Source: a virus (lineage: Duplodnaviria > Heunggongvirae > Uroviricota > Caudoviricetes). From it: DNA of 64,000 bases. Below, piece after piece: positions 12,235 to 27,391 of the stretch (positions are counted from its first letter, which is position 1; every line of letters starts with the position of its first letter). The notes beneath the pieces were generated by a model. That model did no database searches. It was not told the origin of the DNA and was given only the letters and a program-made list of their open reading frames with translations. Location of the stretch: positions 100,285-164,284 of IMG/VR virus record IMGVR_UViG_3300043399_000371, one strand, 5' to 3'. The position numbers and the translations under genes were made by a program.

Positions 12235-12237
12235 CCA

Positions 12238-12553: not shown

Positions 12554-12562
12554 TTTTTCTCC

Positions 12563-13144: not shown

Positions 13145-13182
13145 AAAATAGTTTTCCTTTTTTTATTTAGATTTTTTCATTT

Positions 13183-13935
13183 TTACTCACTCAATATGAT
13201 TCCGGGACCAATCTGAACATACTGATTCAACCAAGGATATACACCAGAATATTTCTCATAATTCTTTTGATTACCAATTTCAAAAAATTCTCTATTAACT
13301 GAATTAGGATTACCGTCAAGTCTATAACATAAACTGTAATCTGCTGAACAAGTGAAATGTGGGAAGTATTGCCTTAGTGCATAGAAAAATTGTCTATCGG
13401 CTCCCCATTGACCATACCATGCGTGTCCAATTTTTGTTGCAACCTCTATCTTTACCGCAAAGCTAGATGTGTCAATATGATAAACCTGATCATTTACATA
13501 GACGGGCCATTTACCCAGAGATTCGCAATTATCGTTACAGATGAAAGAACCGTCTTTATCATGAATTTTACGTAGAGAATACACCCAATCATAATTTTGT
13601 GATTGCATCTTTTCGACAAGTTTTTCAACATGATTGGGTTCAAACCAGTTGTCTTCGTCTAGATAACAGATTATATCAGCATTCACCAGAAATGAGCAAG
13701 CAGAATAAACACGATGCCCATACCAACCTTTTCCAACATTTTCTTGTAGTGAAATTGTTTTTATTTCTTTCTCACTACAGTTTTCATTAATTGTCAGATA
13801 AGAGTCGCCAAAGTATTGCTCACCATCAACAAACACATAATGAGTTAAATTTTCATATGTTTGTTTTTGAACACTTTGCAAACAATCTTTTAGAACTGGT
13901 GAACCGATTGTTGGTGTGATGACTGCAACTTTCAT
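13183..13935 (-). CDS. family-2 glycosyltransferase
   Basis: N-terminal VAVITPT...SVQKQTY. DxD motif YLDEDNWF. Confidence 0.65.
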   Translation of the reverse strand: MKVAVITPTIGSPVLKDCLQSVQKQTYENLTHYVFVDGEQYFGDSYLTINENCSEKEIKTISLQENVGKGWYGHRVYSACSFLVNADIICYLDEDNWFEPNHVEKLVEKMQSQNYDWVYSLRKIHDKDGSFICNDNCESLGKWPVYVNDQVYHIDTSSFAVKIEVATKIGHAWYGQWGADRQFFYALRQYFPHFTCSADYSLCYRLDGNPNSVNREFFEIGNQKNYEKYSGVYPWLNQYVQIGPGIILSE

Positions 13936-14360
13936 GATAGATCAAGACCGGGAAATGCTTCTTGAACAATTTTGGGTGTCAAATATTTAATGCCCAAATC
14001 CTTTTTGATAAGGTTAACTAGAATTTCTGCTTCGTCTTTATGAAGAGATTCTAGAACCACAACAAGAAGACTTTTCTTTTTTTCTGGTGTTAGATTTGTC
14101 CTATTTGGATGATCCTTGATAAACCTATAAAGTTTTGGGATCTCCATATCAAGATAAGTCCAGTTTAGTCCTGCGGGTTCTGGTGCTGGTCTATAAGCAG
14201 GGACATCCACATCAAACACAATTCCTTTTTTGTAAAGAAGTTGAAAGAATGTCCTGAAAATTGGATGATCATATTTTCTTAGAACTTGTATCTTGTCTTC
14301 TTTTGTATTTGCTTTTTGATATTCATCAAAAATTTCGGAATATAATTTTGCTGCACTCAT
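13932..14360 (-). CDS. hypothetical protein
   Basis: 142-aa ORF overlapping neighbours by 4 nt and 1 nt (operon coupling). Confidence 0.5.
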   Translation of the reverse strand: MSAAKLYSEIFDEYQKANTKEDKIQVLRKYDHPIFRTFFQLLYKKGIVFDVDVPAYRPAPEPAGLNWTYLDMEIPKLYRFIKDHPNRTNLTPEKKKSLLVVVLESLHKDEAEILVNLIKKDLGIKYLTPKIVQEAFPGLDLS

Positions 14361-15208
14361 TAGAACTCTCCAATAACTTCAATTAGGTTTTTTAGTCTGT
14401 ACTTGATCATATAATTCATGAAATGTGTTTTAGACTTGGTTTCATAGTTCTCATAAACATTAATGACCTTTTCTGACAACTCTTTTGGAATCATAGTCAG
14501 ATCAATCAACATCTGATTCCTATTAAAGTTGCGCTTCATGTAATCATCGCAAAAATCATCGGGTTTCTGATTTAACCAATTTGTGAGTTTGACCTCCATG
14601 ATTGGTTTTTGTCGTTTGCCCACAATAAAAACATCATCATCAGAAAGAATGTTTGGAATACCATCATTCTTATCACCACGAATAATGAGTTCTTTAAGTT
14701 GTTTCTCAGGAAAATTTTCCTTGAGTTCTTTCTTCATGATCGGTGAAAATTGGCTAACATTTTGGAACTTTTGCAATTGAGCAAAGTCCTTGTCAGATGA
14801 AAGAATCATGATGTTTTCAACCGTATGATACTTCTGTGCTAGAACAGAAATAATATCATCTGCCTCACAAGTATCAATCTCAATAACTTTGTAAGGTGAG
14901 TTCTCTTTTAGTTCTTCTTTAATTTTGTTTAGACAATCGAAAATCTTTGTCCAATCGTGACCAGAATTATCTCGATGCTTTTTTCGATTAGCTTTGTAAT
15001 GGGGGAAGATTTCTTTCCTCCAATAATGTCGGCTATCACAGGCAATTACAACATTACTACCATAACTTTCTTTATATTTTTTAACATATGTCCTGATCGT
15101 GTTTAGGATCATATGACGAACAAGATTCTCATCAACCTCTTCTTTGGTTGATCCAATCTGTTCCATAAGATTCGAAATGGCAACTTGGTTATAGTCAAAA
15201 ATAATCAT
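14360..15208 (-). CDS. rnh: RNase H / 5'-3' exonuclease (T4 rnh homolog)
   Basis: IFDYNQVAIS, VRHMILNTIR, EADDIISV and SSDKDFAQL align to T4 RNase H blocks (LIDFSQIALS, VRHLILNSIK, EADDHIAV, SSDGDFTQL). Confidence 0.85.
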   Translation of the reverse strand: MIIFDYNQVAISNLMEQIGSTKEEVDENLVRHMILNTIRTYVKKYKESYGSNVVIACDSRHYWRKEIFPHYKANRKKHRDNSGHDWTKIFDCLNKIKEELKENSPYKVIEIDTCEADDIISVLAQKYHTVENIMILSSDKDFAQLQKFQNVSQFSPIMKKELKENFPEKQLKELIIRGDKNDGIPNILSDDDVFIVGKRQKPIMEVKLTNWLNQKPDDFCDDYMKRNFNRNQMLIDLTMIPKELSEKVINVYENYETKSKTHFMNYMIKYRLKNLIEVIGEF

Positions 15209-15373
15209 TTAGTGTATCTCTTCATTTGTATTATATAATCCACCACTATACTTATGTGCGTAAATATCTATCAGTATACTTTCAAACTCATTTAATTCTT
15301 CTAATGTTGCTGCCTCAGGTGGAAGTTCTCCTGTGACAACTTTCCACACTCTATATCGATCTTCGTAATTCAT
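15209..15373 (-). CDS. small protein (54 aa), not in ORF track
   Basis: RBS aggaattttat-ATG. Stop TAA overlaps the rnh ATG (TAAATG). Confidence 0.4.
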   Translation of the reverse strand: MNYEDRYRVWKVVTGELPPEAATLEELNEFESILIDIYAHKYSGGLYNTNEEIH

Positions 15374-15382
15374 ATAAAATTC

Positions 15383-16450
15383 CTATTTGATAACACGTAG
15401 CAGAATCGTGTCAGAATTTAGACGACCAGTAAGTTTGCCTTCGACTGAGTTGATATTTTGTAGGGCAGTCCTGAGGTACACTTTACCACCTTTTATGACT
15501 TCTGGCAAGACTTTTTCTGGTTTCCTAAGAGTTTTCTGAACGGATTTGGTTTCGTCAAAATTAATTAGTGTAGATCCCTTCACAGATAGACCAGTAGCTT
15601 CAGAAGAAAAATACACACCAAGCTTCCTAGTCTTTGTATTGTATACCCATATCTGATTAGCCCCAATGATATCTTTCTTTGGAAATGATTTTAATGAAAG
15701 TTCTTCAAAGGATTCACAGATATTTAATGATGCAACAAGTTGTTCTGGTGTTTTTGTTTTCTTCTTTCTTGGCTTTCTTGTTTTACTGGAATCTTCAACA
15801 GTATTAGTGCATTCAATAATAATTGCATTGAAGAAAGAAACAATTTTCTTTAACTGTGTTTTTGTAAAATTCGAATATGCTTCTTGTATAAATTTATCAT
15901 TAGTTTCGATAACCTCAATGTACTCAAGTCTTTTTTTCTTAGCCCACTCCATAATATGTTTGGCGTGAAAGGCTTTTACCTTTTCATGAAAGACCATTTT
16001 GATCTGTGAGTAGTCTTTGAAATCCTCAATGTACTCATCAAATGCAAATTCAAGATCTCCAATAATTTCGGAAACTTTTTCGAAAAATATATCTGATCGA
16101 TCTTTTTTATTACTAATAGTTTTCTGAATAGTCTTTTTCATATGATGCCGTTCTTTGATTTCGGCAACACAAGAATCAAACCATTTTTGGTTCTCTTCTG
16201 GAATTTCACCACCGTTCATAATAATTCTACAAACAAACCCAAAGGTTGTTGTCTGATCTTTATATGAATCAGTTGTAAGTTCTAGTTTAAAATTTTTCTT
16301 GAAGTATGACTGAATGTATTTCTCAGAATCTTTATCTGTGCGATTCTGTGAGAACCAATTTAGAACACCAATCAATTGAAGCTTTGTTAGTGGTCCAGTA
16401 AGTTTTGGTTCTGGAGAAATAATGTCATATGCGTTTGTGTTTCTTGTCAT
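15383..16450 (-). CDS. hypothetical protein with basic linker (KTRKPRKKKTKTPEQ)
   Basis: 355-aa ORF. Confidence 0.5.
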   Translation of the reverse strand: MTRNTNAYDIISPEPKLTGPLTKLQLIGVLNWFSQNRTDKDSEKYIQSYFKKNFKLELTTDSYKDQTTTFGFVCRIIMNGGEIPEENQKWFDSCVAEIKERHHMKKTIQKTISNKKDRSDIFFEKVSEIIGDLEFAFDEYIEDFKDYSQIKMVFHEKVKAFHAKHIMEWAKKKRLEYIEVIETNDKFIQEAYSNFTKTQLKKIVSFFNAIIIECTNTVEDSSKTRKPRKKKTKTPEQLVASLNICESFEELSLKSFPKKDIIGANQIWVYNTKTRKLGVYFSSEATGLSVKGSTLINFDETKSVQKTLRKPEKVLPEVIKGGKVYLRTALQNINSVEGKLTGRLNSDTILLRVIK

Positions 16451-16508
16451 TTTTCATCCTCTTTTTTCATAATGCTACAATATGTAGATGAGAATGTCAA
16501 GATGTTGT

Positions 16509-16583
16509 TGGCACCCCCGGCAGGAATCGAACCCACATTCATGCTTTAGAAGAGCATTGTCTTATCCATTAGACGACGGAGGT
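16509..16583 (-). tRNA. tRNA-Arg(TCT)
   Basis: Hand-folded cloverleaf: acceptor ACCTCCG/CGGGGGT, D-arm GTCT/AGAC, anticodon stem ATGCT/AGCAT, loop CTTCTAA, T-loop TTCGATT. CCA is encoded. Confidence 0.75.
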
Positions 16584-16590
16584 AATTTGA

Positions 16591-16674
16591 TGGTGCCCAA
16601 GGAGGGAGTCGAACCCTCATACCTTTCGGTAGTGGATTTTGAGTCCACCGTGTATACCATTCCACCACTTGGGC
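16591..16674 (-). tRNA. tRNA-Leu(CAA), type II
   Basis: Acceptor GCCCAAG/CTTGGGC, anticodon loop CTCAAAA, long variable arm, T-arm AGGGTTCGACTCCCT. Confidence 0.7.
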
Positions 16675-16683
16675 TATTTATTT

Positions 16684-16759
16684 TGGTGCTGCCTCTAGGG
16701 ATCGAACCTAGTTCCACGATTCTTCAGACCGTTGCTATGACCACATCAGCTAAAGCAGC
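16684..16759 (-). tRNA. tRNA-Phe(GAA)
   Basis: Acceptor GCTGCTT/AGGCAGC, anticodon loop CTGAAGA, T-arm CTAGGTTCGATCCCTAG. Confidence 0.7.
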
Positions 16760-16802
16760 AATGTGTGTATATTACAGGAATACACCAACCTTGTCAATAC
16801 TT

Positions 16803-16876
16803 TGGTACTTCGTGACAGAATCGAACTGCCGTAACCGCCGTGTAAAGACGGAGTTCTACCATTGAACTAACGAAGC
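16803..16876 (-). tRNA. tRNA-Val(TAC)
   Basis: Acceptor GCTTCGT/ACGAAGT, anticodon stem CCGTC/GGCGG, loop TTTACAC, T-arm GGCAGTTCGATTCTGTC. Confidence 0.7.
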
Positions 16877-16877
16877 A

Positions 16878-17540
16878 TTATTCTTTCTTCTTTTTAATAT
16901 GCACATGAACACCATTAGCAGCAACGCCACTCAATTTTTTAACTTCAACTTCATGTCCATGCCTTCTAGCATAATCTTCAACGTAATCTTTTAATTCGTT
17001 ACCATCAAACCCTTTTTGGTATGATGTTTCTTCACCACCACCTTTTACTTTTCTCTTTACCCAGATAGATTTTGGTTCATCACCGGGAACTGAGTTTTTA
17101 GCAGCATCAATATCACCTTTCCATTTGCGTGTACCAATAATTGCATGACCACCATCTTTAACAGAATTAAAAATGGAATGCATTACGTGTTCGCGCACAT
17201 GAGGCTCAACTACATTCAATACATTATGACAAACAGCAGCGTGATAATGATTGCGTGGTATATCTTCTGATTTTGTATATTCAGGTGGTTCTTTTCTACC
17301 TTCTGGATTTGGCTCCATGTCATGAATTTCGTGAGTATTACCCTCACCAAGACCAGAATGTAAAGCTTTTCTTGTATGATCCAAACCAGCACCAATACTA
17401 ATAATTTTAGAATTTGGTTCTAGTTTATTTTTTAATATACGACCAGTTTTTTCGTAGGTTCCACCAGTAGTTGCTACTTGTGTTCTTCCTGTAGCATTTA
17501 CTCGTTCTTCTTCGAAAATGAATTTTTTGAATGATAACAT
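16878..17540 (-). CDS. capsid-targeting-sequence (CTS)-bearing protein with class-I SAM methyltransferase-like motif; candidate packaged internal protein
   Basis: N-terminus MLSFKKFIFEEE resembles the T4 internal-protein CTS (MKTYQEFIAE; gp21 cleaves after L/I-x-E). KIISIGAGLDHT matches MTase motif I. Confidence 0.5.
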   Translation of the reverse strand: MLSFKKFIFEEERVNATGRTQVATTGGTYEKTGRILKNKLEPNSKIISIGAGLDHTRKALHSGLGEGNTHEIHDMEPNPEGRKEPPEYTKSEDIPRNHYHAAVCHNVLNVVEPHVREHVMHSIFNSVKDGGHAIIGTRKWKGDIDAAKNSVPGDEPKSIWVKRKVKGGGEETSYQKGFDGNELKDYVEDYARRHGHEVEVKKLSGVAANGVHVHIKKKKE

Positions 17541-17577
17541 ATTAACTCCGATTGAATAGATTTAATATTTATCTATA

Positions 17578-17654
17578 TGGGGTGTTCAGTCGGATTCGAA
17601 CCGACAACCATCTGACTCACAATCAGAGACTTTGCCAATTAAGCTATGAACACC
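17578..17654 (-). tRNA. tRNA-His(GTG) with encoded G-1
   Basis: Anticodon stem TCTGA/TCAGA, loop TTGTGAG. 5' GGTGTTC pairs with GAACACC, giving an extra 5' G opposite the discriminator C as in tRNA-His. Confidence 0.75.
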
Positions 17655-17661
17655 ATAATTT

Positions 17662-17739
17662 TGGAGCGGGTAGGGAGATTCGAACTCCTCACTTGAGGTT
17701 TGGAAGACCGCCGTGCTAACCGTTAAACACTATACCCGC
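17662..17739 (-). tRNA. tRNA-Gly(TCC)
   Basis: Acceptor GCGGGTA/TACCCGC, anticodon loop CTTCCAA (one stem mismatch), T-loop TTCGAAT. Confidence 0.6.
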
Positions 17740-17747
17740 TAACTGTT

Positions 17748-19184
17748 TTAGATTACTTTGTATCGATCTTGCAAAACAGTTTTAAGCATGATCGACTCTG
17801 GTGTGAACTGTTCCAGATCAGCAGCAAGAACAGACTTCATAATTGCTGGTGAGAACCCAGAAACTAGTGCAGTCCCTTCCTTATCAAACTTCACAGGAAC
17901 ATTATCGTGTGCATTCAAGTTCCAGAACACAATTTTTGGAAGCTTATAACCAGCAGCTTCATATTGCTTCCGAATCATTTTGAATGCAGTATAGTCAGGA
18001 CGACAAGCAGCATCAAATTGCATATCGGAAAGGATTAGAAGAACCTCTGGCATTTCTTCTTGTGATACTTTACCCTTTGTTGCGGTTTTAAGAATCAACT
18101 TAAATGCTGCTTCAAGATCGGTATTCATTCCCCAATCAGAAGAAACCATCTGTTCAATTTTCTGATTGATGTTTCCTTTCAGATAAAGGAGTTCTGGATT
18201 TCCAGAGAAAGTCAAGAAAGCATCCTTGAACTTACCAACATTTTTATCTGCTAGGTAAAGTCCTAGAGAAACAGCAATTTCCATACAAGTAGTCTTAGAC
18301 TTACCAGCAGGACTATTCATAGAACCAGAAACATCAACAAGAGGAAGAATCTTAGCATCCCCAACATAGTTAGGTAGTGCTTCCCATTGTTTTTCAATGA
18401 GTTTTAGTTCTGTACCACTAAACTTAATATAGTGGCGAATACGACCCTTTAGAACATCGTGGGGGAAAATCGCACCAGCATTAACCTTCACAGTAGGATC
18501 ATCACCCTTAACAAGCTTATCGATATACTCTTGATACTTTGCTGGAGCATTACGATAGAAAGCTTTTTTGTATCGTGAAGATGCAACAGAAGGCACATGG
18601 CTGAAATTGATATCATCCCATTGTTTTGCACACATCTGAGTCTCAACAACCTTAGTTAGTTCGACTAGACGCTTACGATAAAACTTAGGTGTCCAACCAA
18701 GATGATTACGAAGTGCAACTGCGGCATCACCTTTACGTGGCATCCATTTAGCACATAGACCATCGTTGCTAGCAAGAGCGTCTTTAATCATGTTAAAGAC
18801 ATTTTCTTGGTTTTTATTCCAAGCATCACCAATTGCAAGAACATCATCCCAACGACCTAGTTCTGGTGCTTTCGATGCTAGAGCAAAAGCAGCAGCAGGA
18901 TCATGTTTATCAAGATGCTTTAGGATATCACGGTATATTTGACGTTCACCAGCACCACCACGAACATCACGTACCCAAGCAGCGATACGTAGAGCAAGAT
19001 CTTTGTCTTCCACATAAGCAGCAACGAAATCGGGAATGATGTCTTTTCCGCGTGAAGCACCTACTTTGAAGAATAGGTCAACACAGGCACTACCAGTACG
19101 TTTACGGGCTTTCATACCGTTAGTAGTAGTAGTTTTTTGGTTTTGGATTGCGTTTACAAAAGTAGTCATATTATTTCCTTTCAA
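17748..19184 (-). CDS. Ro60/TROVE-like protein with C-terminal vWA (MIDAS) domain
   Basis: 478 aa. MIDAS LPLVDVSGSM and downstream LLILSDMQ parallel human Ro60 (VDVSASM ... FIVFTDNE). Helical N-terminal region. Adjacent to tRNA genes. Confidence 0.6.
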   Translation of the reverse strand: MKGNNMTTFVNAIQNQKTTTTNGMKARKRTGSACVDLFFKVGASRGKDIIPDFVAAYVEDKDLALRIAAWVRDVRGGAGERQIYRDILKHLDKHDPAAAFALASKAPELGRWDDVLAIGDAWNKNQENVFNMIKDALASNDGLCAKWMPRKGDAAVALRNHLGWTPKFYRKRLVELTKVVETQMCAKQWDDINFSHVPSVASSRYKKAFYRNAPAKYQEYIDKLVKGDDPTVKVNAGAIFPHDVLKGRIRHYIKFSGTELKLIEKQWEALPNYVGDAKILPLVDVSGSMNSPAGKSKTTCMEIAVSLGLYLADKNVGKFKDAFLTFSGNPELLYLKGNINQKIEQMVSSDWGMNTDLEAAFKLILKTATKGKVSQEEMPEVLLILSDMQFDAACRPDYTAFKMIRKQYEAAGYKLPKIVFWNLNAHDNVPVKFDKEGTALVSGFSPAIMKSVLAADLEQFTPESIMLKTVLQDRYKVI

Positions 19185-19454
19185 TTCAACAGGTTAATTT
19201 TTAGTCAATGTATCAAATTGATTTTTCATAAGTTGCGGAACTTAACCTAAAATCAACAGAATAGCTTTTTTGCGTGGTTACAATTACAAGTTGTATGCAT
19301 TTTTGTTGCTGTAACTATTCTAAAAACAACGGGATAGTTGTTCTCATCTTTTTATCCTGCTTTACGAGTCTTCGCAGTTTGCCTGACACTATGTAATCAG
19401 GCTTCTCTTTTATTAGAGGTTGCTGTCACCTATCCCAAAACCTTTACTGCTCAA

Positions 19455-19495
19455 CATGGTGTAATTATGTCACACCACCAACAACTTGTCAAGCA
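19455..19495 (-). promoter_or_regulatory. sigma70-like early promoter (TTGACA-N17-CATAAT) driving a ~270-nt leader plus the Ro60-like gene
   Basis: Minus-sense gtgcTTGACAagttgttggtggtgtgaCATAAT. Lies inside the 3' end of the upstream ORF. Confidence 0.5.
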
Positions 19496-19959
19496 CTTTT
19501 TAGTGTTTTATATCTATCTGCTGCGTAAGATGCTGCAAATGCTCTAGGTTTAACCATTGGAATTACATTGCAAGTTCCTTTGATATAACCAATAGCTTCA
19601 TTTACAACACAAGATGACCCATGAACTTCATTTGGATTGATGTCTAGGTGGACTTCAACGTCACGGTCTTCCAATACATCAGCAAGTTTTAGATACATTT
19701 CCGAAACTTTATAAGCTTCGTTCATTAATCGGTATCGTGGTTTGTCTTGTTTTTGGTCATAATCCCTTTCGCGGATAATTTCACCAAAAACTTTACAACC
19801 ATTTTTACCATTCATATGAACAACGATAGCAATAATGTAATCTGCATACCATTGACCATTTGATTTAAAACGTTCGGAATCACACCCAAGATAAATTTTA
19901 GTCTCAGGTGACTGAGAATCGATGAACATTTTTACTTCTTCTAAATTTATCTTAGACAT
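19489..19959 (-). CDS. YkuK/DUF458-like RNase H-fold protein
   Basis: Blocks IYLGCDSER, YIIAIVVH, HLDINPNEVHGS and IPMVKPRAFAASYAAD recall B. subtilis YkuK. This is from memory. Confidence 0.45.
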   Translation of the reverse strand: MSKINLEEVKMFIDSQSPETKIYLGCDSERFKSNGQWYADYIIAIVVHMNGKNGCKVFGEIIRERDYDQKQDKPRYRLMNEAYKVSEMYLKLADVLEDRDVEVHLDINPNEVHGSSCVVNEAIGYIKGTCNVIPMVKPRAFAASYAADRYKTLKSA

Positions 19960-19980
19960 GATAACCCCTTTTTTATTGTG

Positions 19981-20053
19981 CTACGGTGGAGGGATTCGAA
20001 CCCCCAACAACTGATTTTGGAGATCAGGACTCTTCCAGTTGAGCTACACCGTA
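19981..20053 (-). tRNA. tRNA-Trp(CCA), CCA not encoded
   Basis: Acceptor TACGGTG/CACCGTA, anticodon stem CTGAT/ATCAG, loop CTCCAAA, T-arm GGGGGTTCGAATCCCTC. Confidence 0.75.
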
Positions 20054-20063
20054 ATTGAAAAAA

Positions 20064-20139
20064 TGGAACCTCTTGAGAGAATCGAACTCACATTCCCAGA
20101 TTCGTATTCTGGAGTCCTAGTCCGTTGAACGAAAGAGGT
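20064..20139 (-). tRNA. tRNA-Arg(ACG)
   Basis: Acceptor ACCTCTT/AAGAGGT, anticodon stem CCAGA/TCTGG, loop ATACGAA, T-loop TTCGATT (T-T mismatch at 50:64). Confidence 0.65.
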
Positions 20140-20334
20140 TTAGTTGATAAGATATTTGTATAATTGAACTAACTTTTCACCATAAGCACCTATAATAGTT
20201 AAAAGACTAAAAATAGTTACTAGACTCAAAGCAATCCACTTATTCGAATCGTTTGATGTAGATAAGGCTATGGCAAATATTTCATTGCCCAATATTCGTA
20301 TCTTTATTTCGTATGTTTTCTGTTGGTTTTCCAC
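20140..20334 (-). CDS. possible small membrane protein
   Basis: 64-aa hydrophobic ORF. Overlaps the next ORF by 53 nt. Confidence 0.25.
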   Translation of the reverse strand: MENQQKTYEIKIRILGNEIFAIALSTSNDSNKWIALSLVTIFSLLTIIGAYGEKLVQLYKYLIN

Positions 20335-20569
20335 TATAAATATTCACTTTAAATATTTTTGGAAAATTCTTTCTATGTATATTACAAATACGAATTATAC
20401 ACAAGTAATCATGTACTGGAAATCCTTGTCTCTTCCCGTCTCTCGTATCATATAATAGATTTAAAAAATACTGATGCATATCATAACTACCCCACAACAA
20501 CATAATTTTTTTTGCTATATGTGGATATTTTATTGATATCACATCAAATTCTTTTGTTTGTATAAACAT
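20282..20569 (-). CDS. hypothetical protein
   Basis: 95-aa ORF. Confidence 0.4.
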   Translation of the reverse strand: MFIQTKEFDVISIKYPHIAKKIMLLWGSYDMHQYFLNLLYDTRDGKRQGFPVHDYLCIIRICNIHRKNFPKIFKVNIYSGKPTENIRNKDTNIGQ

Positions 20570-20581
20570 TTTTTTATAGAT

Positions 20582-20938
20582 TTATCTCTGACCACCAAAA
20601 TAAGGTTTTGCCAGATTTTCTGTTATGAGCAAATCGTTTACAGACACCGATTCATCCAGATTTAGATACAATTTTGCTAAGTATCTTCCATATTTATCTG
20701 TTTTAAATGTTTGTATGTATATCTTCTTATCAAGAACTAAATCTATTAATCTTTGTTTAGCTTTTTTGGCTAGTTCTCTTTCTTCTGCAACAGATGATGT
20801 TAATTCTTCAGTATCAATCCCATAAAGTCTTAACCTCTGATGGGAATATACAGAAAAACCAAGATCAACAGAAACATCAATAGTGTCTCCATCCACCACA
20901 TTTAATACTTTTGCTTCAAACAAATAATACATTTTCAT
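20582..20938 (-). CDS. staphylococcal-nuclease (SNase)-like thermonuclease
   Basis: VDGDTI, RLRLYGIDTEE, DKYGRYLA and the C-terminal ENLAKPYFGG block match the SNase signature. Confidence 0.7.
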   Translation of the reverse strand: MKMYYLFEAKVLNVVDGDTIDVSVDLGFSVYSHQRLRLYGIDTEELTSSVAEERELAKKAKQRLIDLVLDKKIYIQTFKTDKYGRYLAKLYLNLDESVSVNDLLITENLAKPYFGGQR

Positions 20939-20958
20939 CTCCGAAATCTGATTATTTG

Positions 20959-21612
20959 TTATTTATGTTTCACTCTTCCTCTTCTCCATCCTTCTGGTAT
21001 AGGATCTGTTTTCAATATCTTTTTATTTTTTTCACCATCAGTAATCCACATAGTTCCATATTGAGAATTTTTTGTTGGATCGGAAAGTCTTTTTTTAGCT
21101 TTTTCAGACATATTTCTTTTAGTTTCTTCACTATGAGTCTTACCAACAAAAGCACCATTAGGATATTTTTTCTTAAATTGTTCAAAACCTTTTTTAGCAT
21201 TGTTTCTTATGTGTTCTCTAAACAGAGAATCAGATTTATATTTTTCTTTCCATTTTTTTATTCTATCTTCATGGCTAATCAAAGAATTTAATCTTTTTTC
21301 TGTCAAATACTTTTCAGGATTTGTGTTTATCCAATCCCAACCACCAAATCCACCTATTTTAAGATTATATGTATTTTCAGTAGCAAGAAATTCTTCATTA
21401 ACAATTTCAGCTTCTTTTTGGTACATAAGTTCTGGTGTATCAAAAACAAACAATATTTCTTTGGTAAAATTTTCTATACCATATTTTTCTATTGCTTTTT
21501 TAAGATACTTACCGGAACCCACATATTTGTCATCCAGATCTTTGGTCTTATGGCTTCCAATATAGAACTTGCCATCAATCTGATTTGTTATCTTATAAAT
21601 TGTGTAGTACAT
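20959..21612 (-). CDS. GIY-YIG homing endonuclease (Seg-like) with C-terminal NUMOD-like DNA-binding region
   Basis: N-terminal YTIYKITNQIDGKFYIGS is a GIY-YIG motif. The basic C-terminus carries WITDG. Confidence 0.75.
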   Translation of the reverse strand: MYYTIYKITNQIDGKFYIGSHKTKDLDDKYVGSGKYLKKAIEKYGIENFTKEILFVFDTPELMYQKEAEIVNEEFLATENTYNLKIGGFGGWDWINTNPEKYLTEKRLNSLISHEDRIKKWKEKYKSDSLFREHIRNNAKKGFEQFKKKYPNGAFVGKTHSEETKRNMSEKAKKRLSDPTKNSQYGTMWITDGEKNKKILKTDPIPEGWRRGRVKHK

Positions 21613-21667
21613 AGTAAACTCCTATGTACATATTTATAAGTTTCGAGTCTTGACATCAACTCAAGGG

Positions 21668-21742
21668 TCCGTGTGGCAAGATTCGAACTTGCGGTTTCTA
21701 CGCCCCAAACGTAGCGACTTGACCGGACTAGCCTACACACGG
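21668..21742 (-). tRNA. tRNA-Pro(TGG), CCA not encoded
   Basis: Acceptor CCGTGTG/CACACGG, D-arm GGCT/AGTC, anticodon stem CTACG/CGTAG, loop TTTGGGG, T-arm GCAAGTTCGAATCTTGC. Confidence 0.75.
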
Positions 21743-22402
21743 TTATTCTTGTTCATAAAATTTGTTTAGTACATTCTGATCAGTACCATAACACCATGAA
21801 GGACGTTTTTCAATTTCTTGCCAATCAACATAAAATGGTTGTTTATTTTTTTGTATTACATTTATATTGCTTTTTTCACCATCACTAGCTGAAACATTAA
21901 ATGATATATTTTCTATCTCACCACGAAATTCTGATGTAATCAAATATGTCAATGCTGGCAAATCATTTTTATATCTTGATGTTTGTGTGTGTTTCTTGTT
22001 TCTTGGATCGAATTCCCTAGAATCATGAAATAACATAAAACCACCATTTTTCAATTTACTCCAAATGATTCTAGCAATTTTATGTCTTGCTGGAACTAAA
22101 CCATCTATGAACGCCACATCTATTTCAGAAATCTGTTTCACGATTCCCTTTAAGTCAGAAGATATAATAGCATTTTGAAAATTTAACTGTTTAATTCTTT
22201 CGCTTACAGTAGAAACCCATTGTGGATTGTGTTCATAAGCGAATACTTGTTTTGAAGTTTGTGCGAAGATCATAGTGCTTCCACCAGACCCATGCTCAAA
22301 AACAACTTCAGAATTTGATCCATATTTTGCAAGAACATCAGCATCTTGTAAACTGAGATCACCAACCCATCTAATATTTTGAAGATATTTAAATCTACTC
22401 AT
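21743..22402 (-). CDS. putative class-I SAM-dependent methyltransferase (start moved to internal Met because the listed start lies inside tRNA-Leu)
   Basis: VFEHGSGGST is a glycine-rich motif I. RBS agga lies 8 nt upstream of the M26 ATG. The track ORF 21743..22477 would overlap the tRNA. Confidence 0.4.
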   Translation of the reverse strand: MSRFKYLQNIRWVGDLSLQDADVLAKYGSNSEVVFEHGSGGSTMIFAQTSKQVFAYEHNPQWVSTVSERIKQLNFQNAIISSDLKGIVKQISEIDVAFIDGLVPARHKIARIIWSKLKNGGFMLFHDSREFDPRNKKHTQTSRYKNDLPALTYLITSEFRGEIENISFNVSASDGEKSNINVIQKNKQPFYVDWQEIEKRPSWCYGTDQNVLNKFYEQE

Positions 22403-22419
22403 TATTTTCCTATATCTTG

Positions 22420-22501
22420 TACGGATGGTGAGATTCGAACTCACACGCCTTTCGACACGGACTTCTAAGGACCGCACGGCTACCAGTTACGTCATATCCG
22501 C
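22420..22501 (-). tRNA. tRNA-Leu(TAG), type II, CCA not encoded
   Basis: T-arm GTGAGTTCGAATCTCAC, acceptor GCGGATA/CATCCGT (one mismatch), 3-bp D-stem, anticodon loop CTTAGAA, long variable arm. Confidence 0.55.
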
Positions 22502-22938
22502 TTTTTATTATTTTTCCCCGAATTTGTACTTGTTTGTGCGTGACAATTCGGACAAATAATTCGTAAATTTTTCATATCATTATTATAATGATTACCATCT
22601 ATATGATCAAGTTCAATCGGAACTTTTTGACTCATCCATTCTGATATATTACACACTTCACATCTATGTTCTTTTATACCTTCTCTAATCAATTTTAATT
22701 TTAATTTGTGAGCAGACACATAGTTGTTTTTAATATATTCAGAAGCACTTATATAAGTTTTATCGTTTTTAGATCCTCTAGAACCCTGATTACCGACATA
22801 TGTTATGCCCATAATTTGAAGATAACGTTCTAGAGTTTCTGGTTTACATTTTAAAATTTTGCAAATGTAAGCTTTAGGGCGATTTTCCGTTATCCAAATA
22901 AGAATATCTTGTTTTTTATCTAAAATATCATTTCGCAT
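22492..22938 (-). CDS. HNH homing endonuclease
   Basis: C-terminal ELDHIDGNHYNNDMKNLRIICPNCHAQ. Confidence 0.75.
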   Translation of the reverse strand: MRNDILDKKQDILIWITENRPKAYICKILKCKPETLERYLQIMGITYVGNQGSRGSKNDKTYISASEYIKNNYVSAHKLKLKLIREGIKEHRCEVCNISEWMSQKVPIELDHIDGNHYNNDMKNLRIICPNCHAQTSTNSGKNNKKRI

Positions 22939-23017
22939 ACAATTCCTTTTTATAGTATACTCAATGTATTTATAACTATTGCCTCTTCCAATTGGGCTAC
23001 ATCCGCATTTAATTCTT

Positions 23018-23133
23018 TGGCGCTGCTGCTAGGATTCGAACCTAGATCTCTTCCTTGACATGGAATTTTAGTATGCTGTACGTATCCATTACTGGATCAC
23101 TTTTTAAGTATCCTACCATTAGACGACAGCAGC
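23018..23133 (-). pseudogene. interrupted tRNA-Asp(GTC)-like element: 5' and 3' halves separated by ~41-nt insert carrying a GNRA hairpin
   Basis: 3' half: anticodon stem ATTCC/GGAAG with loop ATGTCAA, T-arm CTAGGTTCGAATCCTAG, then CAGCAGC-G-CCA. The pairing 5' half GCTGCTG-TC-GTCT-AATGGTA lies ~115 nt away. The insert contains ATCCA-GTAA-TGGAT. Confidence 0.4.
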
Positions 23134-23135
23134 TT

Positions 23136-23215
23136 TGGTGCGAATGGCCGGGATCGAACCGGCACGACCTTTCGGTCGGCAGATTTTCGTACCACTATAG
23201 CTTTCGCTACCCATA
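23136..23215 (-). pseudogene. tRNA-like element (perfect T-arm, Ser-like variable arm CGACCGAAAGGTCG) lacking a resolvable D-arm and anticodon arm
   Basis: T-arm GCCGGTTCGATCCCGGC then CATTCGC-A-CCA. The only 5' partner is GCGAAAG, which makes it 67 nt, too short for a tRNA. Confidence 0.35.
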
Positions 23216-23316
23216 TTTAGTAAACATAGTTTGTGGTCTGGACTTTATCTTTACCATACTATTATAAATAGTTTAGGTAGTGCCTGTCAAGTCTCTACAC
23301 CTCCAAAGGGAATCAT

Positions 23317-23781
23317 ATGAAATTACGCAAATATACGAAAGAGCAATTAGAACAAGCGGTTTTAACATCAGTATCTCTTAGACAAGTCTTGGAAAAACTA
23401 AACGTTAAAATGGCAGGAGGTAATTATTCCACTCTTAAAAAAGCAATCAAGTATTACAATCTAAATACAGATCATTTTACAGGAATGAATCTTAAAGGTA
23501 GATCATTACCACCAAGACGAAGACCAATCAAAGATTATCTAACAAAAGAGTCTGGTGTACAATCAAATAAACTCAGAAAATATTTACTTGATGAAAATGT
23601 ATTCCAACATCAATGTTCATCTTGTAATCTAACTTCATGGTTAGATTCAAAAATTCCACTTGAACTCGATCATATAGATGGTGATAACATGAATAACGAA
23701 TTATCCAATCTTCGACTTCTTTGTCCGAACTGTCATGTTCTAACACCAACGTATAGAGGCAAAAACATACGAAAAACCTAA
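23317..23781 (+). CDS. HNH homing endonuclease
   Basis: ELDHIDGDNMNNELSNLRLLCPNCHVLTPT. This is the only plus-strand gene within the minus-strand tRNA cluster. Confidence 0.75.
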   Translation: MKLRKYTKEQLEQAVLTSVSLRQVLEKLNVKMAGGNYSTLKKAIKYYNLNTDHFTGMNLKGRSLPPRRRPIKDYLTKESGVQSNKLRKYLLDENVFQHQCSSCNLTSWLDSKIPLELDHIDGDNMNNELSNLRLLCPNCHVLTPTYRGKNIRKT

Positions 23782-23782
23782 G

Positions 23783-24029
23783 TTTGGCTCGGGGTTGGCA
23801 TTTTAAAGCTTTCTCCGAATTTAAGCACATTCACACTAGAAGTTTCCTATCTAGGTGCTCAATTTACTTAAGTCTGCTGCGGCTACCAATTACGCCACAC
23901 TCGCAAAAATCAACAGGATACTTTTTAGATGTCTGCTCTACCAATGAGCTATTCTTCCAAGCGGAAAAAGTTGGGGTCGAACCAACTACCTAACATTTAT
24001 GTTAGAATTGCTGCGTGTATCCTAAAACT
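23783..24029 (-). other. cluster of degenerate tRNA-like pieces (D-arm AGCTCATTGGTAGAGC; T-arm GTTGGTTCGACCCCAAC; 6-nt-loop anticodon-like hairpin)
   Basis: Canonical arm motifs are present, but no complete cloverleaf with a paired acceptor could be built by hand. Confidence 0.35.
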
Positions 24030-24104
24030 TGGTGCCTCTTGCCGGTTATGCTCCAACGACTACGGGTTACAAATCCGTTGTTTTTCTAATTAAACTAAAG
24101 AGGC
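24030..24104 (-). tRNA. tRNA-Thr(TGT) with non-canonical T-loop (AGCATAA)
   Basis: Acceptor GCCTCTT/AAGAGGC, D-arm GTTT/AAAC, anticodon loop TTTGTAA. CCA is encoded. Confidence 0.5.
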
Positions 24105-24458
24105 TATAAAATCTTTATTTATATTTTCTATGGGTACAACTATAAGTTTTATGTTATTTTGATTAATAACACTATCTATCTTTTCTTTATCCTTTATTAT
24201 AAGGTATTCATTTTTTGTATCGAAAAAAACATTACCAACTTTAAAATCTGGATAATATCTATGATGAATACCGTTTTTGTCTTTCCAAATAAATGGTTTT
24301 GGCCTTTCCCATTCTACTTCAAGTTCCTCAAGAATAGTTGCAAACATTATTTCATATGAACTATGTAGGTAAACATCACTACCATCTTTTTTACGGAACC
24401 AAATTTTATTTTTAGAAGTATGACCACCTAAGTTATTTTTGATAGCCAAATCTCTCAT
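24090..24458 (-). CDS. PD-(D/E)XK nuclease-fold protein (YYPDF...DTK), possible homing-type nuclease
   Basis: Shares the Y(Y/F)PDF motif with ORF 1..393. Its last 5 codons overlap the tRNA-Thr 5' end. Confidence 0.45.
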   Translation of the reverse strand: MRDLAIKNNLGGHTSKNKIWFRKKDGSDVYLHSSYEIMFATILEELEVEWERPKPFIWKDKNGIHHRYYPDFKVGNVFFDTKNEYLIIKDKEKIDSVINQNNIKLIVVPIENINKDFIASLV

Positions 24459-24923
24459 TTTTTCTTTGAATTCTGGTGGGTGTCCAGTTAAAGCCCTTCC
24501 CCATTTTCTTCCTATAAACTGAGGTCTTGCAATATTAGGATTATCTTCTTATGTCAATCCTTTATTCCAAGGAGATTTCCCTTTTCTTCCATTTTGGATT
24601 TTTCTGTTTGGATTATCTTTACATCTTTGTTCGTGTTGCAATAAAGATGAATTTTTTCCATACTCTTTTAAACAGTATTTACATTTTAACATATATTATA
24701 TTTTATAATAATTCTTTTACGACTGACTCCTTGTTTTGTTCCGCCTCTCTTATTCGGAACCATTTCACCCTTGAATACTAGGCCGGCAGGGTCAGAGGTA
24801 AGTAGTTATAGTTGATACGTGCTAGTTGCTGTGTTGTCGGACTCGCACCGTTAGCTTTCTAATTGTATGCCTACAACTGATTTCTCAACATCTACAACAA
24901 AGTGTCATGCGTAAAAGAACTAT

Positions 24924-24999
24924 TGGTGCCTGTAGTTGGGATCAAACCAACGACCTATCGGTTATCGACCGATTGCTCTATCAACTGAGCTATACAGGC
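24924..24999 (-). tRNA. tRNA-Ile(GAT)
   Basis: Acceptor GCCTGTA/TACAGGC, D-arm GCTC/GAGC, anticodon stem ATCGG/CCGAT, loop TCGATAA, T-loop TTTGATC. Confidence 0.65.
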
Positions 25000-25305: not shown

Positions 25306-25310
25306 ATATT

Positions 25311-25389
25311 TGGCTCCGCATTAGGGAATCGAACCCTACTAGCCATTGATTAACAGTCAAGCCCATGCACCTTGCTCGGGTTCTGCGGA
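25311..25389 (-). tRNA. tRNA-Asn(GTT)
   Basis: T-arm TAGGGTTCGATTCCCTA, acceptor TCCGCAG/ATGCGGA (mismatch at 7:66), anticodon loop CTGTTAA in stem TTGA/TCAA. Confidence 0.55.
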
Positions 25390-25458
25390 ATCGATACTAC
25401 AGGTTAGCTTTATAACATTCCAATATGTTTTTTTATATTGCTGGACCTAACCTAAAAC

Positions 25459-25809: not shown

Positions 25810-25893
25810 ACCATATTAAAGTAAACTAATCAGGTACACTATATAGTCTACGACAATCACTCAAGCTTATTGACTAGCATACTTTAATATGGT
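25810..25893. repeat. 12-nt inverted repeat ACCATATTAAAG / CTTTAATATGGT flanking ~60 nt
   Basis: Exact reverse complements at 25810..25821 and 25882..25893. On the minus-strand transcript they would form a 12-bp stem. Confidence 0.7.
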
Positions 25894-26003
25894 GACGGTA
25901 TAAGGAATCTATCTCCGTCTGTGCAGAAGTCATTTCAACCATCCTGCGAGGGTTGTCCACCATATAAAGGGTGAACCCGGTGTCCCCTGCGCCTCTGCAT
26001 CTA

Positions 26004-26103
26004 ACCATATTAAAATACACTAGTAAGAAGATCAATCCAATTGGCTGATGATTGCTTCTTTAGGTTGCCAAACCCGTAACTAACTAATGTACTTTAATAT
26101 GGT
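26004..26103. repeat. inverted repeat ACCATATTAAAA / CTTTAATATGGT; right arm includes the CCA end of tRNA-Lys
   Basis: 11/12 complementarity. The right arm at 26092..26103 overlaps the tRNA-Lys terminal ACCA. Confidence 0.65.
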
Positions 26104-26174
26104 ACGGGCAGAGGGATTCGAACCCACAACTTATCGGTTAAAAGCCGATTACTCTACCATTGAGTTATACCCGC
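26100..26174 (-). tRNA. tRNA-Lys(TTT)
   Basis: Acceptor GCGGGTA/TGCCCGT, D-arm ACTC/GAGT, anticodon stem ATCGG/CCGAT, loop CTTTTAA, T-loop TTCGAAT. Confidence 0.7.
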
Positions 26175-26321
26175 AAAATCTTACCACTCTTGTCACTATC
26201 CATAACAGGACTCCTTTTATTAATGGTTGGCATTACGAACTTTAGCCGTACTTCTAACGTGAGTACCGAAAATGTATCGTAGACACATCGTTTTCTTACG
26301 CCCACAAGGGATTTGAGGAAT

Positions 26322-26398
26322 TGGTGTCTCCAGAGGGACTTGAACCCACAACCAACGGCTTATGAGGCCGCTGCTCTGACCGATTGAGCTATAGAGAC
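26322..26398 (-). tRNA. tRNA with CAT anticodon (Met, fMet or Ile2), copy 3
   Basis: Acceptor GTCTCTA/TGGAGAC, D-arm GCTC/GAGC, anticodon stem GCGGC/GCCGT, loop CTCATAA, T-loop TTCAAGT. Confidence 0.65.
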
Positions 26399-26441
26399 TT
26401 AATCTTCAACAGTACGCATTATACAGGATCAACCAACTTTG

Positions 26442-27083
26442 TCAATAGGTCAAATGTTCATGTTGATTCTTAATTTTCTTCTTAAGCATCGTCTGAATTC
26501 CCGGATTCACTACTAATGCAGATTTCACCATTTCTTTACGAATAAAATTCCGCATGAATGATGTATCTTCATTACTAGGATCGTTAATATACACGATTTT
26601 CTTTCTCGATGCCCAATCAACAATTTCTTCTTTCTCTGTAATCAAGAAAGGTCGAACAACATTTTTATTACGATAAGGAATCAGTTTCGGTGTTCCATGT
26701 AGAGAACTCCAAATCCATGTTTCCAATACGTCACCAAGATGATGTCCAGTAACAACCATATCAAACTGACTAAGAAACTTATATCGTTCCTCTCGCCAAA
26801 ACTCTTCTTTACTTTGTTCTTTAGGTTTTGTCGAAGTCAATTTACCTACAACAAGAGGCAGAGAATTATTTTTACAGTAATGTGTAAGAAACAGTTCTGC
26901 TTCCTGTCCATGTTGTGTGCCGTGATTGAAATAAGCAACTTGTACTTCATGATTCCGTTTAAGGAAGTCTAGAACTACCATGCTATCAATACCACCAGAA
27001 CAAGCAACAGTAACTTTCCGTTGCACACCAAATAGCATTTTCAACATATTCAATATTCCTTTTAGGATACCATATTGAAACAC
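26442..27083 (-). CDS. tilS: tRNA(Ile)-lysidine synthetase TilS (catalytic N-type ATP-pyrophosphatase domain only); true start probably the internal Met at ~27047
   Basis: PP-loop VACSGGIDS, VTGHHLGDVLET (E. coli TilS: TAQHLDDQCET) and NDPSNEDTSFMRNFIR (DESNQDDSYDRNFLR). The listed GTG start lies inside an inverted-repeat stem. Confidence 0.7.
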   Translation of the reverse strand: MFQYGILKGILNMLKMLFGVQRKVTVACSGGIDSMVVLDFLKRNHEVQVAYFNHGTQHGQEAELFLTHYCKNNSLPLVVGKLTSTKPKEQSKEEFWREERYKFLSQFDMVVTGHHLGDVLETWIWSSLHGTPKLIPYRNKNVVRPFLITEKEEIVDWASRKKIVYINDPSNEDTSFMRNFIRKEMVKSALVVNPGIQTMLKKKIKNQHEHLTY

Positions 27084-27164
27084 ACTCTTTGCAAATATCC
27101 CACCGCTCCGGAACGGTTACAACGGGTCCAACGTCAGGGGTTGGCGAATGTATTTCAATATGGT
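27069..27164. repeat. perfect 12-nt inverted repeat ACCATATTGAAA / TTTCAATATGGT; right arm includes the tRNA-Glu ACCA end, left arm abuts the TilS RBS
   Basis: Exact reverse complements at 27069..27080 and 27153..27164. Confidence 0.7.
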
Positions 27165-27236
27165 ACTCGGAGTGGGAATTGAACCCGACATTTCATCCTT
27201 GAAAGGGATGCGTCCTAACCACTAGACGACCCGAGC
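27161..27236 (-). tRNA. tRNA-Glu(TTC)
   Basis: Acceptor GCTCGGG/TCCGAGT (G-U pairs at both ends), D-arm GTCT/GGAC, anticodon stem CATCC/GGATG, loop CTTTCAA. T-stem is weak. Confidence 0.6.
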
Positions 27237-27296: not shown

Positions 27297-27325
27297 ACTA
27301 TACTGGAGTCGCACACACTTGTCAA
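27297..27325 (-). promoter_or_regulatory. consensus sigma70 promoter TTGACA-N17-TATAGT ~55 nt upstream of tRNA-Glu
   Basis: Minus-sense ggtgTTGACAagtgtgtgcgactccagTATAGTtcac. Confidence 0.6.
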
Positions 27326-27341
27326 CACCACCAACAAAAAA

Positions 27342-27366
27342 CCCCAAGATTTTTTAGGTCTTGGGG
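27342..27366. terminator. rho-independent terminator hairpin CCCCAAGAT-TTTTTAG-GTCTTGGGG with A-run/T-run flanks (copy 1 of 2)
   Basis: Identical sequence recurs at 30342..30366. Confidence 0.7.
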
Positions 27367-27391
27367 TTTCTTTTTTAAGTTTAGTTAGATT

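Follow-up and report, generated by a model that had tools for sequence, protein, structure and literature searches.

Three long inverted repeats in a viral tRNA array proved to be copies of a previously undescribed phage RNA hairpin with a conserved 19-bp stem and a variable top. The array belongs to the window studied here, positions 100,285-164,284 of the IMG/VR record IMGVR_UViG_3300043399_000371 (64,000 nt; coordinates are given in window numbering). The window contains 24 tRNA genes and a permuted transfer-messenger RNA (tmRNA) gene, every one of them on the minus strand. By analogy with known processing sites, the hairpin could be a double-stranded stem marking the cut points of long transcripts, probably for RNase III; we rate the chances of this reading as even. 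The three copies in the window are:

25810-25893, minus strand: hairpin copy 1, the most diverged one, with a stem of 14 bp, one mismatch and 8 bp, preceded by a 110-nt non-tRNA segment.
26004-26103, minus strand: hairpin copy 2, with a 5' arm starting from A73-CCA of tRNA-Lys(UUU), 21 continuous bp and a branched 52-nt top.
27068-27165, minus strand: hairpin copy 3, with a 5' arm (27165-27146) starting from A73-CCA of tRNA-Glu and a 3' arm at 27087-27068.

The motif ACCATATTRAAR occurred at six exact sites in the window, and these made up exactly three inverted pairs (25810-25821/25882-25893, 26004-26015/26092-26103 and 27069-27080/27153-27164). The pairs had been listed in a preliminary description of the sequence, and all six 12-mers were exact and in place. 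When one mismatch was allowed, 10 sites were counted vs. 2.8 ± 1.7 expected, and 10 sites were reached in 0 of 100 shuffles; the motif is thus commoner than AT-rich background, a point on which the preliminary description had made its proposal depend. Stem and loop lengths had been misjudged. Instead of a 12-bp stem looping out 60-90 nt, the arms were 20-24 nt long (copy 1, 25810-25832/25871-25893, 23 nt, 87% complementary; copy 2, 26004-26027/26080-26103, 24 nt, 88%; copy 3, 27068-27087/27146-27165, 20 nt, 90%), the helix of the family measured 19-24 bp and the loops of the three window hairpins 38-58 nt. Two variants of the half-site, said to occur next to other tRNAs, are no copies: CACCATATTTGG is the 4-nt junction of a tRNA-Asn-like and a tRNA-Met gene, and ACCATATAAAGG is located within the 110-nt segment. 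Palindromes arisen by chance in A/T-rich DNA, or common intrinsic terminators, might come to mind because the arms and the whole window are A/T-rich, but the shuffles, the covariation of the stem and the extended stems at 120 or more IMG/VR loci (see below) reduce the probability of this reading to almost nil. A terminator scan left the three hairpins unflagged; their stems are A/U-rich, their loops long, and no U-tract follows.

When the arms were paired by hand, G-U or U-G combinations on the minus-strand RNA accounted for two of the three mismatches in copy 1, two of the three in copy 2 and both in copy 3. All wobbles of the arms are thus G-U pairs on the tRNA-coding strand, whereas the same positions are A-C if read on the plus strand; copies 1 and 2 each have one further mismatch, U-U. 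The 24-nt arms of copy 2 comprised 21 Watson-Crick pairs, 2 G-U and 1 U-U, and the stem of copy 3 had 21 bp including two U-G wobbles. Folding of the ~100-nt units, which had been proposed as a check, gave z-scores of -4.7 to -6.1 on the minus strand, and the minus strand folded better than the plus strand by 8-9 kcal/mol (copy 1, -28.8 vs. -21.0 kcal/mol; copy 2, -36.8 vs. -27.7; copy 3, -42.0 vs. -33.0). Likewise, a covariance model of the family (R1) scored the minus strand higher than the plus strand in copy 1 (50.5 vs. 40.1 bits), copy 2 (58.8 vs. 47.5 bits) and copy 3 (57.2 vs. 46.7 bits), i.e. the sense strand, as set by the tRNAs, was ~10 bits above antisense in all three window copies; it was also higher in most of the 20 related loci searched. 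Strand-biased wobbles, folds and covariance scores thus bore out the RNA-level stem on the minus-strand transcript that the preliminary description had proposed. Because the sense strand outscored the antisense strand, the structure is one of the sense-strand RNA, with single-stranded DNA of the same strand as a formal alternative.

The hairpin is not specific to this tRNA operon, as had been assumed. A 14-mer scan of IMG/VR led to contig L071, a carrier of 34 tRNA genes in which this hairpin is joined to tRNA-Lys(CUU), and a scan with a two-arm pattern then yielded at least 120 IMG/VR loci with 139 copies, almost all inside tRNA arrays of up to 34 tRNAs per locus. With a looser finder, at least 297 copies were collected in 124 loci, 248 of them unique. 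Hairpin sizes ranged from 61 to 159 nt with a median of 90 nt. The element is conserved in relatives, the lack of which was to have spoken against the proposal, and this is compatible with a processing or punctuation role.

The consensus of 85 non-redundant copies is 5'-ACCAUAUUGAAGCACAUU ... AGUGUGUUUCAAUAUGGU-3'. In this alignment, stem positions 1-11 were set by the search pattern, save for the R/Y at position 9, and positions 12-19 were free; the free positions were also strongly conserved. Covarying pairs were 9, 12-16 and 19. Of the cells in the stem columns, 90.6% were paired vs. 31-46% when the partners were slid by 1-3 columns, and the covariation score was 0.239 vs. 0.137 ± 0.006 in shuffles. 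Over the 248 unique copies, the 19 stem pairs comprised 4117 Watson-Crick, 455 G-U and 60 A-C pairs, and pair 17 was U-G in 196 of these copies. Since pairing had fallen to chance level by position 20, the conserved helix is sharply 19 bp long. Individual stems mostly had 18-22 bp, about two helical turns (21-22 bp in the window), and no conserved bulges were found in the family alignment.

The two-arm pattern was also applied to 596 Gb of bacterial and archaeal genomes, where 19 matches were obtained. Three of them were true; their contigs resemble phage tRNA arrays and had been assigned to the bins of Planktophila, Aquiluna and an Alteromonadales genome. In the other 16, an extended stem or a tRNA array is missing, and these are apparently chance matches from a much larger collection, so that a host origin of the signal was rejected. 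With only three true matches, all on phage-like contigs, the element belongs to phages and not to their hosts. The carriers are T4-like phages with T4 RNase H, DsbA, an Rnl1-type RNA ligase, dCMP deaminase, a small heat-shock protein and often a permuted beta-type tmRNA. Among GenBank phages, no canonical copy was detected by BLAST, either by Megablast of the region, where matches were limited to tRNA genes, or by blastn with tRNA-Glu plus arm or with the two-arm consensus. Copies in cultured phages were found only by the covariance model, in tRNA regions fetched through a protein match. Synechococcus phage BUCT-ZZ01 has three of them (47.1, 35.7 and 25.3 bits), and Ralstonia phage RSP15 has a single diverged one that follows tRNA-Phe (L241 11620-11734; 27.6 bits). 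Rfam 15 gave no match over the window hairpins at the gathering score and, at E ≤ 5, only a spurious plant microRNA model (17.7 bits); in seven related loci no Rfam family covered the hairpins either. Covariance-model matches to Rfam families including Y RNA/YrlA, GOLLD and ROOL were likewise absent. We found no description of the hairpin element in the published literature.

In BUCT-ZZ01 (contig L262, ON615601.1), the hairpins are located at 7516-7624, 12954-13042 and 18974-19098. GenBank annotates no tRNA genes at 7600-24900 of this contig, where ARAGORN called a tmRNA and 28 tRNAs, including an amber-suppressor-type CUA tRNA. A coding sequence (CDS) annotated as 'hypothetical protein' at L262 18987-19181 is probably spurious; it overlaps both the tmRNA and a hairpin. 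Small open reading frames (ORFs) of this kind get called over the hairpins, which is of relevance for annotation.

The location of the hairpin relative to tRNAs and mRNAs can be followed in the segment of the window around the three copies, which contains in transcription order:

27333-27375, minus-strand reading: terminator-like hairpin upstream of the 27325-27297 promoter.
27297-27325, minus strand: near-consensus sigma-70 promoter TTGACA-17-TATAGT (11/12 matches) of a unit consisting of tRNA-Glu, hairpin 3 and a PP-loop ORF.
27161-27236, minus strand: tRNA-Glu(UUC), the 3'-terminal ACCA of which provides base pairs 1-4 of hairpin 3.
26442-27047, minus strand: PP-loop ATPase ORF of 201 aa, like the TilS N-terminal domain (PF01171, E = 3e-33), immediately 3' of hairpin 3.
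26418-26445, minus strand: consensus sigma-70 promoter TTGACA-16-TATAAT (12/12 matches), inside the end of the PP-loop ORF.
26100-26174, minus strand: tRNA-Lys(UUU), the 3'-terminal ACCA of which provides base pairs 1-4 of hairpin 2.
25894-26003, minus strand: 110-nt non-tRNA segment between hairpins 2 and 1, ending ...CCGUC and followed by ACCA.

The placement at gene junctions given in the preliminary description was confirmed. Its upstream arm, described as the terminal ACCA of a tRNA, is so in the tRNA-Lys and tRNA-Glu copies; the remaining one, copy 1, comes after the non-tRNA segment. In copy 3, 5-6 nt separate the end of the downstream arm from the AAGGA ribosome-binding site of the PP-loop ORF that follows, as had been said for TilS, and copy 3 is thus a divider between a tRNA and an mRNA within one promoter-driven unit. 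The 26418-26445 promoter drives tRNA-Met, 147 nt, tRNA-Lys, hairpin 2, the 110-nt segment, hairpin 1, 95 nt and then an array of tRNA-Asp, Ala, Met etc. No homologue of the 110-nt segment was found in related loci; its 3' end forms a minihelix-like stem-loop of 5+4 bp directly before ACCA, with a fold z-score of -1.3 that is not significant.

Where a hairpin of the family adjoined the 3' end of a tRNA, the two were in exact register. Of the 136 strict copies, 71 had the tRNA ACCA as hairpin nt 1-4, and none was displaced by 1-20 nt; in the wider set, 116 of 297 copies (39%) began exactly at tRNA A73-CCA and only one was 2-10 nt away. The tRNAs fused to a hairpin were those for Glu, Leu, Lys, Thr, Tyr, Ile, Val and Gln. 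On the other side, the 5' end of the next tRNA was located within -3 to +14 nt of the hairpin end in 43 of 118 strict copies, and 73 of 297 copies ended within 15 nt of the next tRNA. No single pattern followed the hairpin in 108 non-redundant copies (tRNA within 15 nt, 30%; ribosome-binding site and start codon, 8%; promoter-like sequence, 2%; other, 60%). Clusters of four to seven hairpins with no tRNA between them are present at L229 2610-3854, L218 3851-4569 and L170 3001-3732, and three hairpins at L229 3537-3854 are merely 6-7 nt apart.

The exact start of the helix at A73-CCA (39-52% of copies), the near absence of other small offsets and the presence of the hairpin on only some tRNAs would also suit a CCA cap or pro-tRNA switch. 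In such a switch the stem would hide the tRNA 3' end and keep the tRNA inactive, or shielded from 3' exonucleases or CCA-targeting enzymes or toxins, until a trigger removes the trailer. We consider this decidedly unlikely, because the majority of copies are unattached to a tRNA and the unfused copies retain ACCA/UGGU or pairing variants such as GCUA/UGGU; ACCA is sometimes replaced by GCUA, UCCA or UUCA in these copies, with pairing kept. The first four base pairs thus belong to the element and not to the tRNA. Moreover, a trigger or releasing enzyme is not known.

According to the processing-stem reading, the hairpin would be transcribed within polycistronic tRNA or tRNA-mRNA precursors, and its perfect two-turn helix would be cut by a double-strand-specific endonuclease, most likely the host RNase III. 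The cut would free the upstream tRNA and the enclosed RNA from each other and from the downstream RNA, whose 5' end it would make; the leftover short A/U-rich lower stem would then melt and 3' exonucleases would trim the tRNA trailer back to CCA. RNase III cleaves helices of about two turns (~20 bp) in bacterial transcripts, and a perfect two-turn helix inside a bacterial transcript is the ground on which we infer a substrate of this enzyme. As in RNase III stems, an uninterrupted helix of ~20 bp was found on the transcribed strand, and it was located at the boundaries of mature RNAs in a polycistronic precursor.

The closest parallels are the T7 early-gene hairpins and the stems flanking 16S and 23S rRNA. 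These also have a helix of ~20 bp or more in a polycistronic transcript, lie at the boundaries of mature RNAs, can enclose a released RNA and are found in several copies per phage genome. Unlike in those stems, the helix sequence of the phage arrays is near invariant over hundreds of copies and many phages, the first 4 nt of the hairpin are common with the tRNA ACCA, and the helix encloses a hypervariable domain of 30-120 nt; T7 sites have an internal loop, whereas the hairpin helix has none. A second parallel is provided by the tmRNA of the same window:

9829-10237, minus strand: permuted (two-piece) beta-type tmRNA gene with the tag ANDERFALAA and its own TTGACA...TATAAT promoter; also present in L124, L122 and BUCT-ZZ01.
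10035-10129, minus strand: tmRNA intervening segment, after ...CCACCA, with a 13-bp stem continuing the acceptor stem.

Intervening segments of permuted tmRNAs follow an encoded ...ACCA, extend the acceptor helix and must go to expose the CCA, like the hairpin. The window segment gave a weak, diverged match to the hairpin model (19.4 bits, E = 0.023), similar to a weak match in the L124 tmRNA. The sequence match thus is marginal (19-20 bits), and the 3' arm of the tmRNA segment runs into the 5' strand of its own acceptor stem, whereas that of the hairpin runs into unrelated downstream RNA. Judged by this analogy, a segment to be excised after ...ACCA that is weakly hairpin-like would agree with a CCA-exposing role. 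Theta ribozymes, which are hepatitis delta virus (HDV)-like and located directly downstream of phage tRNAs, have been proposed to act in tRNA 3'-end maturation (PMC10879173). They are, too, RNA elements immediately 3' of phage tRNA genes, but they have a conserved self-cleaving catalytic core, while the hairpin is a plain conserved helix with an unconserved interior. A self-cleaving ribozyme (theta/HDV-like or hammerhead) was rejected as identity of the element, as the interior is hypervariable, only the closing helix is conserved and no Rfam ribozyme matched.

Several observations weigh against the processing-stem reading. RNase III has little sequence specificity, and its action leaves unexplained why the stem sequence, including the U17-G wobble, is near invariant across unrelated tops and flanks. 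In these phage loci, 97% of tRNAs encode CCA and only about 6% carry a canonical hairpin, hence the hairpin is not needed for tRNA maturation in general. About 60% of the copies are not fused to a tRNA, and in many loci the covariance model detected clusters of 3-7 hairpins spaced by 6-200 nt. Finally, hairpins internal to the apical domain keep their pairing within families through compensatory changes, e.g. GCCG/CGGC vs. GCUG/CAGC, which suggests that the RNA within the stem is itself a product and no spacer. It is due to the invariant stem with U17-G, the unfused copies and the selection on apical structures that we hold the processing stem at an even chance and keep a small-RNA alternative as a tentative one.

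In that alternative, the hairpin itself is the product, the 19-bp stem is a handle for a specific phage or host protein or a release signal, and the top is a cargo (decoy, guide, aptamer or tRNA mimic) that is freed by array processing. The strong conservation of the stem sequence down to the U17-G wobble would be expected from such scaffolded small RNAs, as would sizes that are typical for small RNAs, the occurrence of hairpin clusters without intervening tRNAs and of the same hairpin in unrelated contexts. The apical regions had no common motif and no base-composition bias. They fell into 188 families among the 248 unique copies, with 143 singletons, yet pairing was preserved by compensation within families. 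The part enclosed by the stem, a loop in the preliminary description, is thus not passive but structured, hypervariable and exchangeable. A few apical domains resemble tRNAs in having a GGUUCGAAUCC T-arm just ahead of the 3' arm, which would rather recall stems that flank processed RNAs; the T-arm motif was present in 6 of 85 apical domains. In murine gammaherpesvirus 68, precursor microRNAs are linked to tRNAs, a precedent for release by tRNA processing. It is difficult to explain, though, how a perfect 19-24-bp helix, which should be cut by RNase III, would survive intact, and no partner protein was identified among the ORFs co-located with hairpin loci. Two ORFs of the window were candidates:

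17748-19184, minus strand: DUF2828/DUF7788/vWA protein of 478 aa in the tRNA region, without sequence match to any solved structure.
19489-19959, minus strand: RNase H-like protein PF04308 (YkuK/DUF458) of 156 aa within the tRNA array, with counterparts of up to 74% identity in 23 related loci.

A Y RNA with a Ro60 partner was rejected, because the Ro60/TROVE-like candidate, the DUF2828/DUF7788/vWA ORF, was encountered in 1 of 120 loci and had no match to solved Ro60, no YrlA match was obtained and the T-arm motif was limited to the few apical domains named above. PF04308 was the ORF most often co-located with the hairpin, in 23 of 120 loci by tblastn and in 24 of 121 by ORF clustering. This co-location is explained by conserved gene order, as T4 RNase H was about as frequent (20 and 22 loci). 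A role of PF04308 as a dedicated hairpin nuclease was dismissed, since its presence does not track the hairpin: the gene is also found in DLP6 and BUDD, both hairpin-less. All in all, a modular class of small RNAs, with the stem as handle for a dedicated phage or host protein or a ruler-like nuclease, a fast-evolving cargo (e.g. decoys against host defence), expression by way of tRNA-array transcription and processing, and swapping by recombination at the handle, has a minor though real share of probability.

Two database observations concern these proteins. Homologues of PF04308 occur in 76 tRNA-rich GenBank phages including KVP40-like vibriophages, roseophages, DLP6 and BUCT-ZZ01, and some are annotated as 'ribonuclease'. 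In the tRNA region of RSP15 (L241 6712-8067), a CDS annotated as 'RNA-binding protein' may be the counterpart of the window vWA protein.

Correia/NEMIS elements are ~100-nt units with terminal inverted repeats of ~20-26 bp, which exist in many copies and are transcribed into hairpins that are cut by RNase III. Unit size, terminal inverted repeats, copy number and transcription into hairpins resemble those of the element studied here. In contrast to Correia/NEMIS, the phage hairpin shows no target-site duplication, has unrelated interiors and strand-biased wobbles and is confined to phage tRNA arrays.

Exchange between phages was evident from a pairwise comparison of 133 copies. An apical domain was common to 28 pairs with both flanks unrelated, 27 pairs had only the upstream flank in common and 15 only the downstream flank, and in 2 pairs both flanks were common while the apical domain differed. 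In alignments between copies, homology opened exactly at ACCA and closed at UGGU, and the flanks of L148 and L214 are 97-100% identical around unrelated apical domains. The same top in unrelated contexts together with different tops between identical flanks requires exchange at the arms; upstream genes, apical domains and downstream genes are thus reshuffled between phages at this element. The common tRNA flanks may be due partly to conserved tRNA genes rather than to exchange. We infer that the near-identical arms act as homology points which cause the reshuffling.

These breakpoints could be taken to indicate that the repeats are in essence a DNA-level recombination linker, selected for the exchange of tRNA and small-RNA gene modules between co-infecting phages, or the ends of a miniature transposable element and that the RNA structure is incidental. 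There is a precedent in T4-type phages, the PeSL, a sigma-70-type early promoter with a short terminator-like stem-loop that flanks ORFs in hyperplastic regions (PMC2839356, PMC4122927), and homing-endonuclease genes are present in the array. Like PeSL, the hairpin is a short conserved repeat of T4-like genomes and marks the borders of modules in which related phages differ, with homology ending at the arms. It differs in being a 19-bp A/U-rich helix with a large top, in its location in tRNA arrays and in its RNA-strand-specific wobbles. The excess of G-U over A-C pairs (455 vs. 60), always on the tRNA-sense strand, would not be expected for double-stranded DNA sites or terminal inverted repeats. 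No recombinase was identified, and the flank sharing may partly have the other source named above. The composite PeSL architecture is absent, as promoter-like sequence directly followed only 2 of the 108 non-redundant copies, and a PeSL cassette was also rejected for the long, A/U-rich stem. As to a miniature inverted-repeat transposable element, terminal inverted repeats of 19-24 nt were found, but no flanking direct repeats and no related interiors. Among 124 loci, a set biased to occupied sites and therefore weak evidence by itself, there was no empty site, only replacement by another hairpin. An integron attC identity was discarded as well, as only ~6% of tRNA genes have a hairpin, conserved bulges are missing and no integrase was detected among the 20 window ORFs scanned against Pfam. 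We therefore regard a DNA-level explanation as unlikely. The hairpin would function most like an RNase III processing stem, judged by analogy, and evolves somewhat like PeSL linkers.

Further features of the array were recorded outside the hairpins. A 12-codon micro-ORF, MDSDKSGKILRV, with an AAGGAG ribosome-binding site lies at 26165-26203 (minus strand) and overlaps the 5' end of tRNA-Lys, possibly by chance. The PP-loop protein (26442-27047) is accompanied by three CAU-anticodon tRNAs, encoded on the minus strand at 25228, 25459 and 26322. One of these may be a lysidine-dependent tRNA-Ile2, in which case the phage would supply a tRNA together with the enzyme that modifies it. Another long-range stem (15+4+7 bp), not related to the hairpins, is formed by 24707-24735 and 24896-24924 (minus strand; fold z-score -3.3). 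It begins at the last A of the tRNA-Ile CCA, encloses ~160 nt and stops just before a small ORF, a layout like that of the hairpin family with another sequence, and it was undetected by model R1.

At 25306-25400 (minus strand), a tRNA-Asn(GUU)-like gene was uncalled by ARAGORN and by Rfam at the gathering threshold. It has a 7-bp acceptor stem with one mismatch, the anticodon loop CUGUUAA, a GGUUCGAUUCC T-arm and a GCCA end, and is 72-95% identical in more than 15 related loci; a similar 'tRNA-Pseudo-GTT' is annotated in phage DLP6. The genes of tRNA-Trp (19980-20053), tRNA-Pro (21666-21742) and tRNA-Leu(UAG) (22419-22501), all on the minus strand, apparently lack an encoded CCA, unlike the other 21 tRNAs. 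Pro and Leu abut or overlap a downstream ORF and Trp is ~20 nt from one; an artefact of the ARAGORN end call is possible. Finally, a GIY-YIG/NUMOD3 (Seg-like) homing-endonuclease gene (20959-21612), an HNH homing-endonuclease gene (22492-22938) and a short zinc-finger-like ORF fragment (24549-24692) are interspersed among the tRNAs on the minus strand, in accordance with mosaic evolution of the array.

To our knowledge, the division of the long mixed tRNA/mRNA transcripts from phage tRNA arrays has barely been studied outside T4, although such arrays are common in large phages. The hairpin constitutes a new, abundant structured RNA family of tRNA arrays in T4-like phages, with a clear architecture and a plausible proposed mechanism. 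Absent from Rfam, sharply defined and confined to the arrays, it offers a concrete entry to phage RNA processing, and direct experiments are permitted by the cultured carriers, BUCT-ZZ01, which infects the model strain Synechococcus elongatus PCC 7942, and Ralstonia phage RSP15. If the tops are functional, the family would be a large reservoir of uncharacterised phage small RNAs. The near-identical arms at module boundaries may, in addition, throw light on the reshuffling of tRNA gene sets in environmental T4-like phages.

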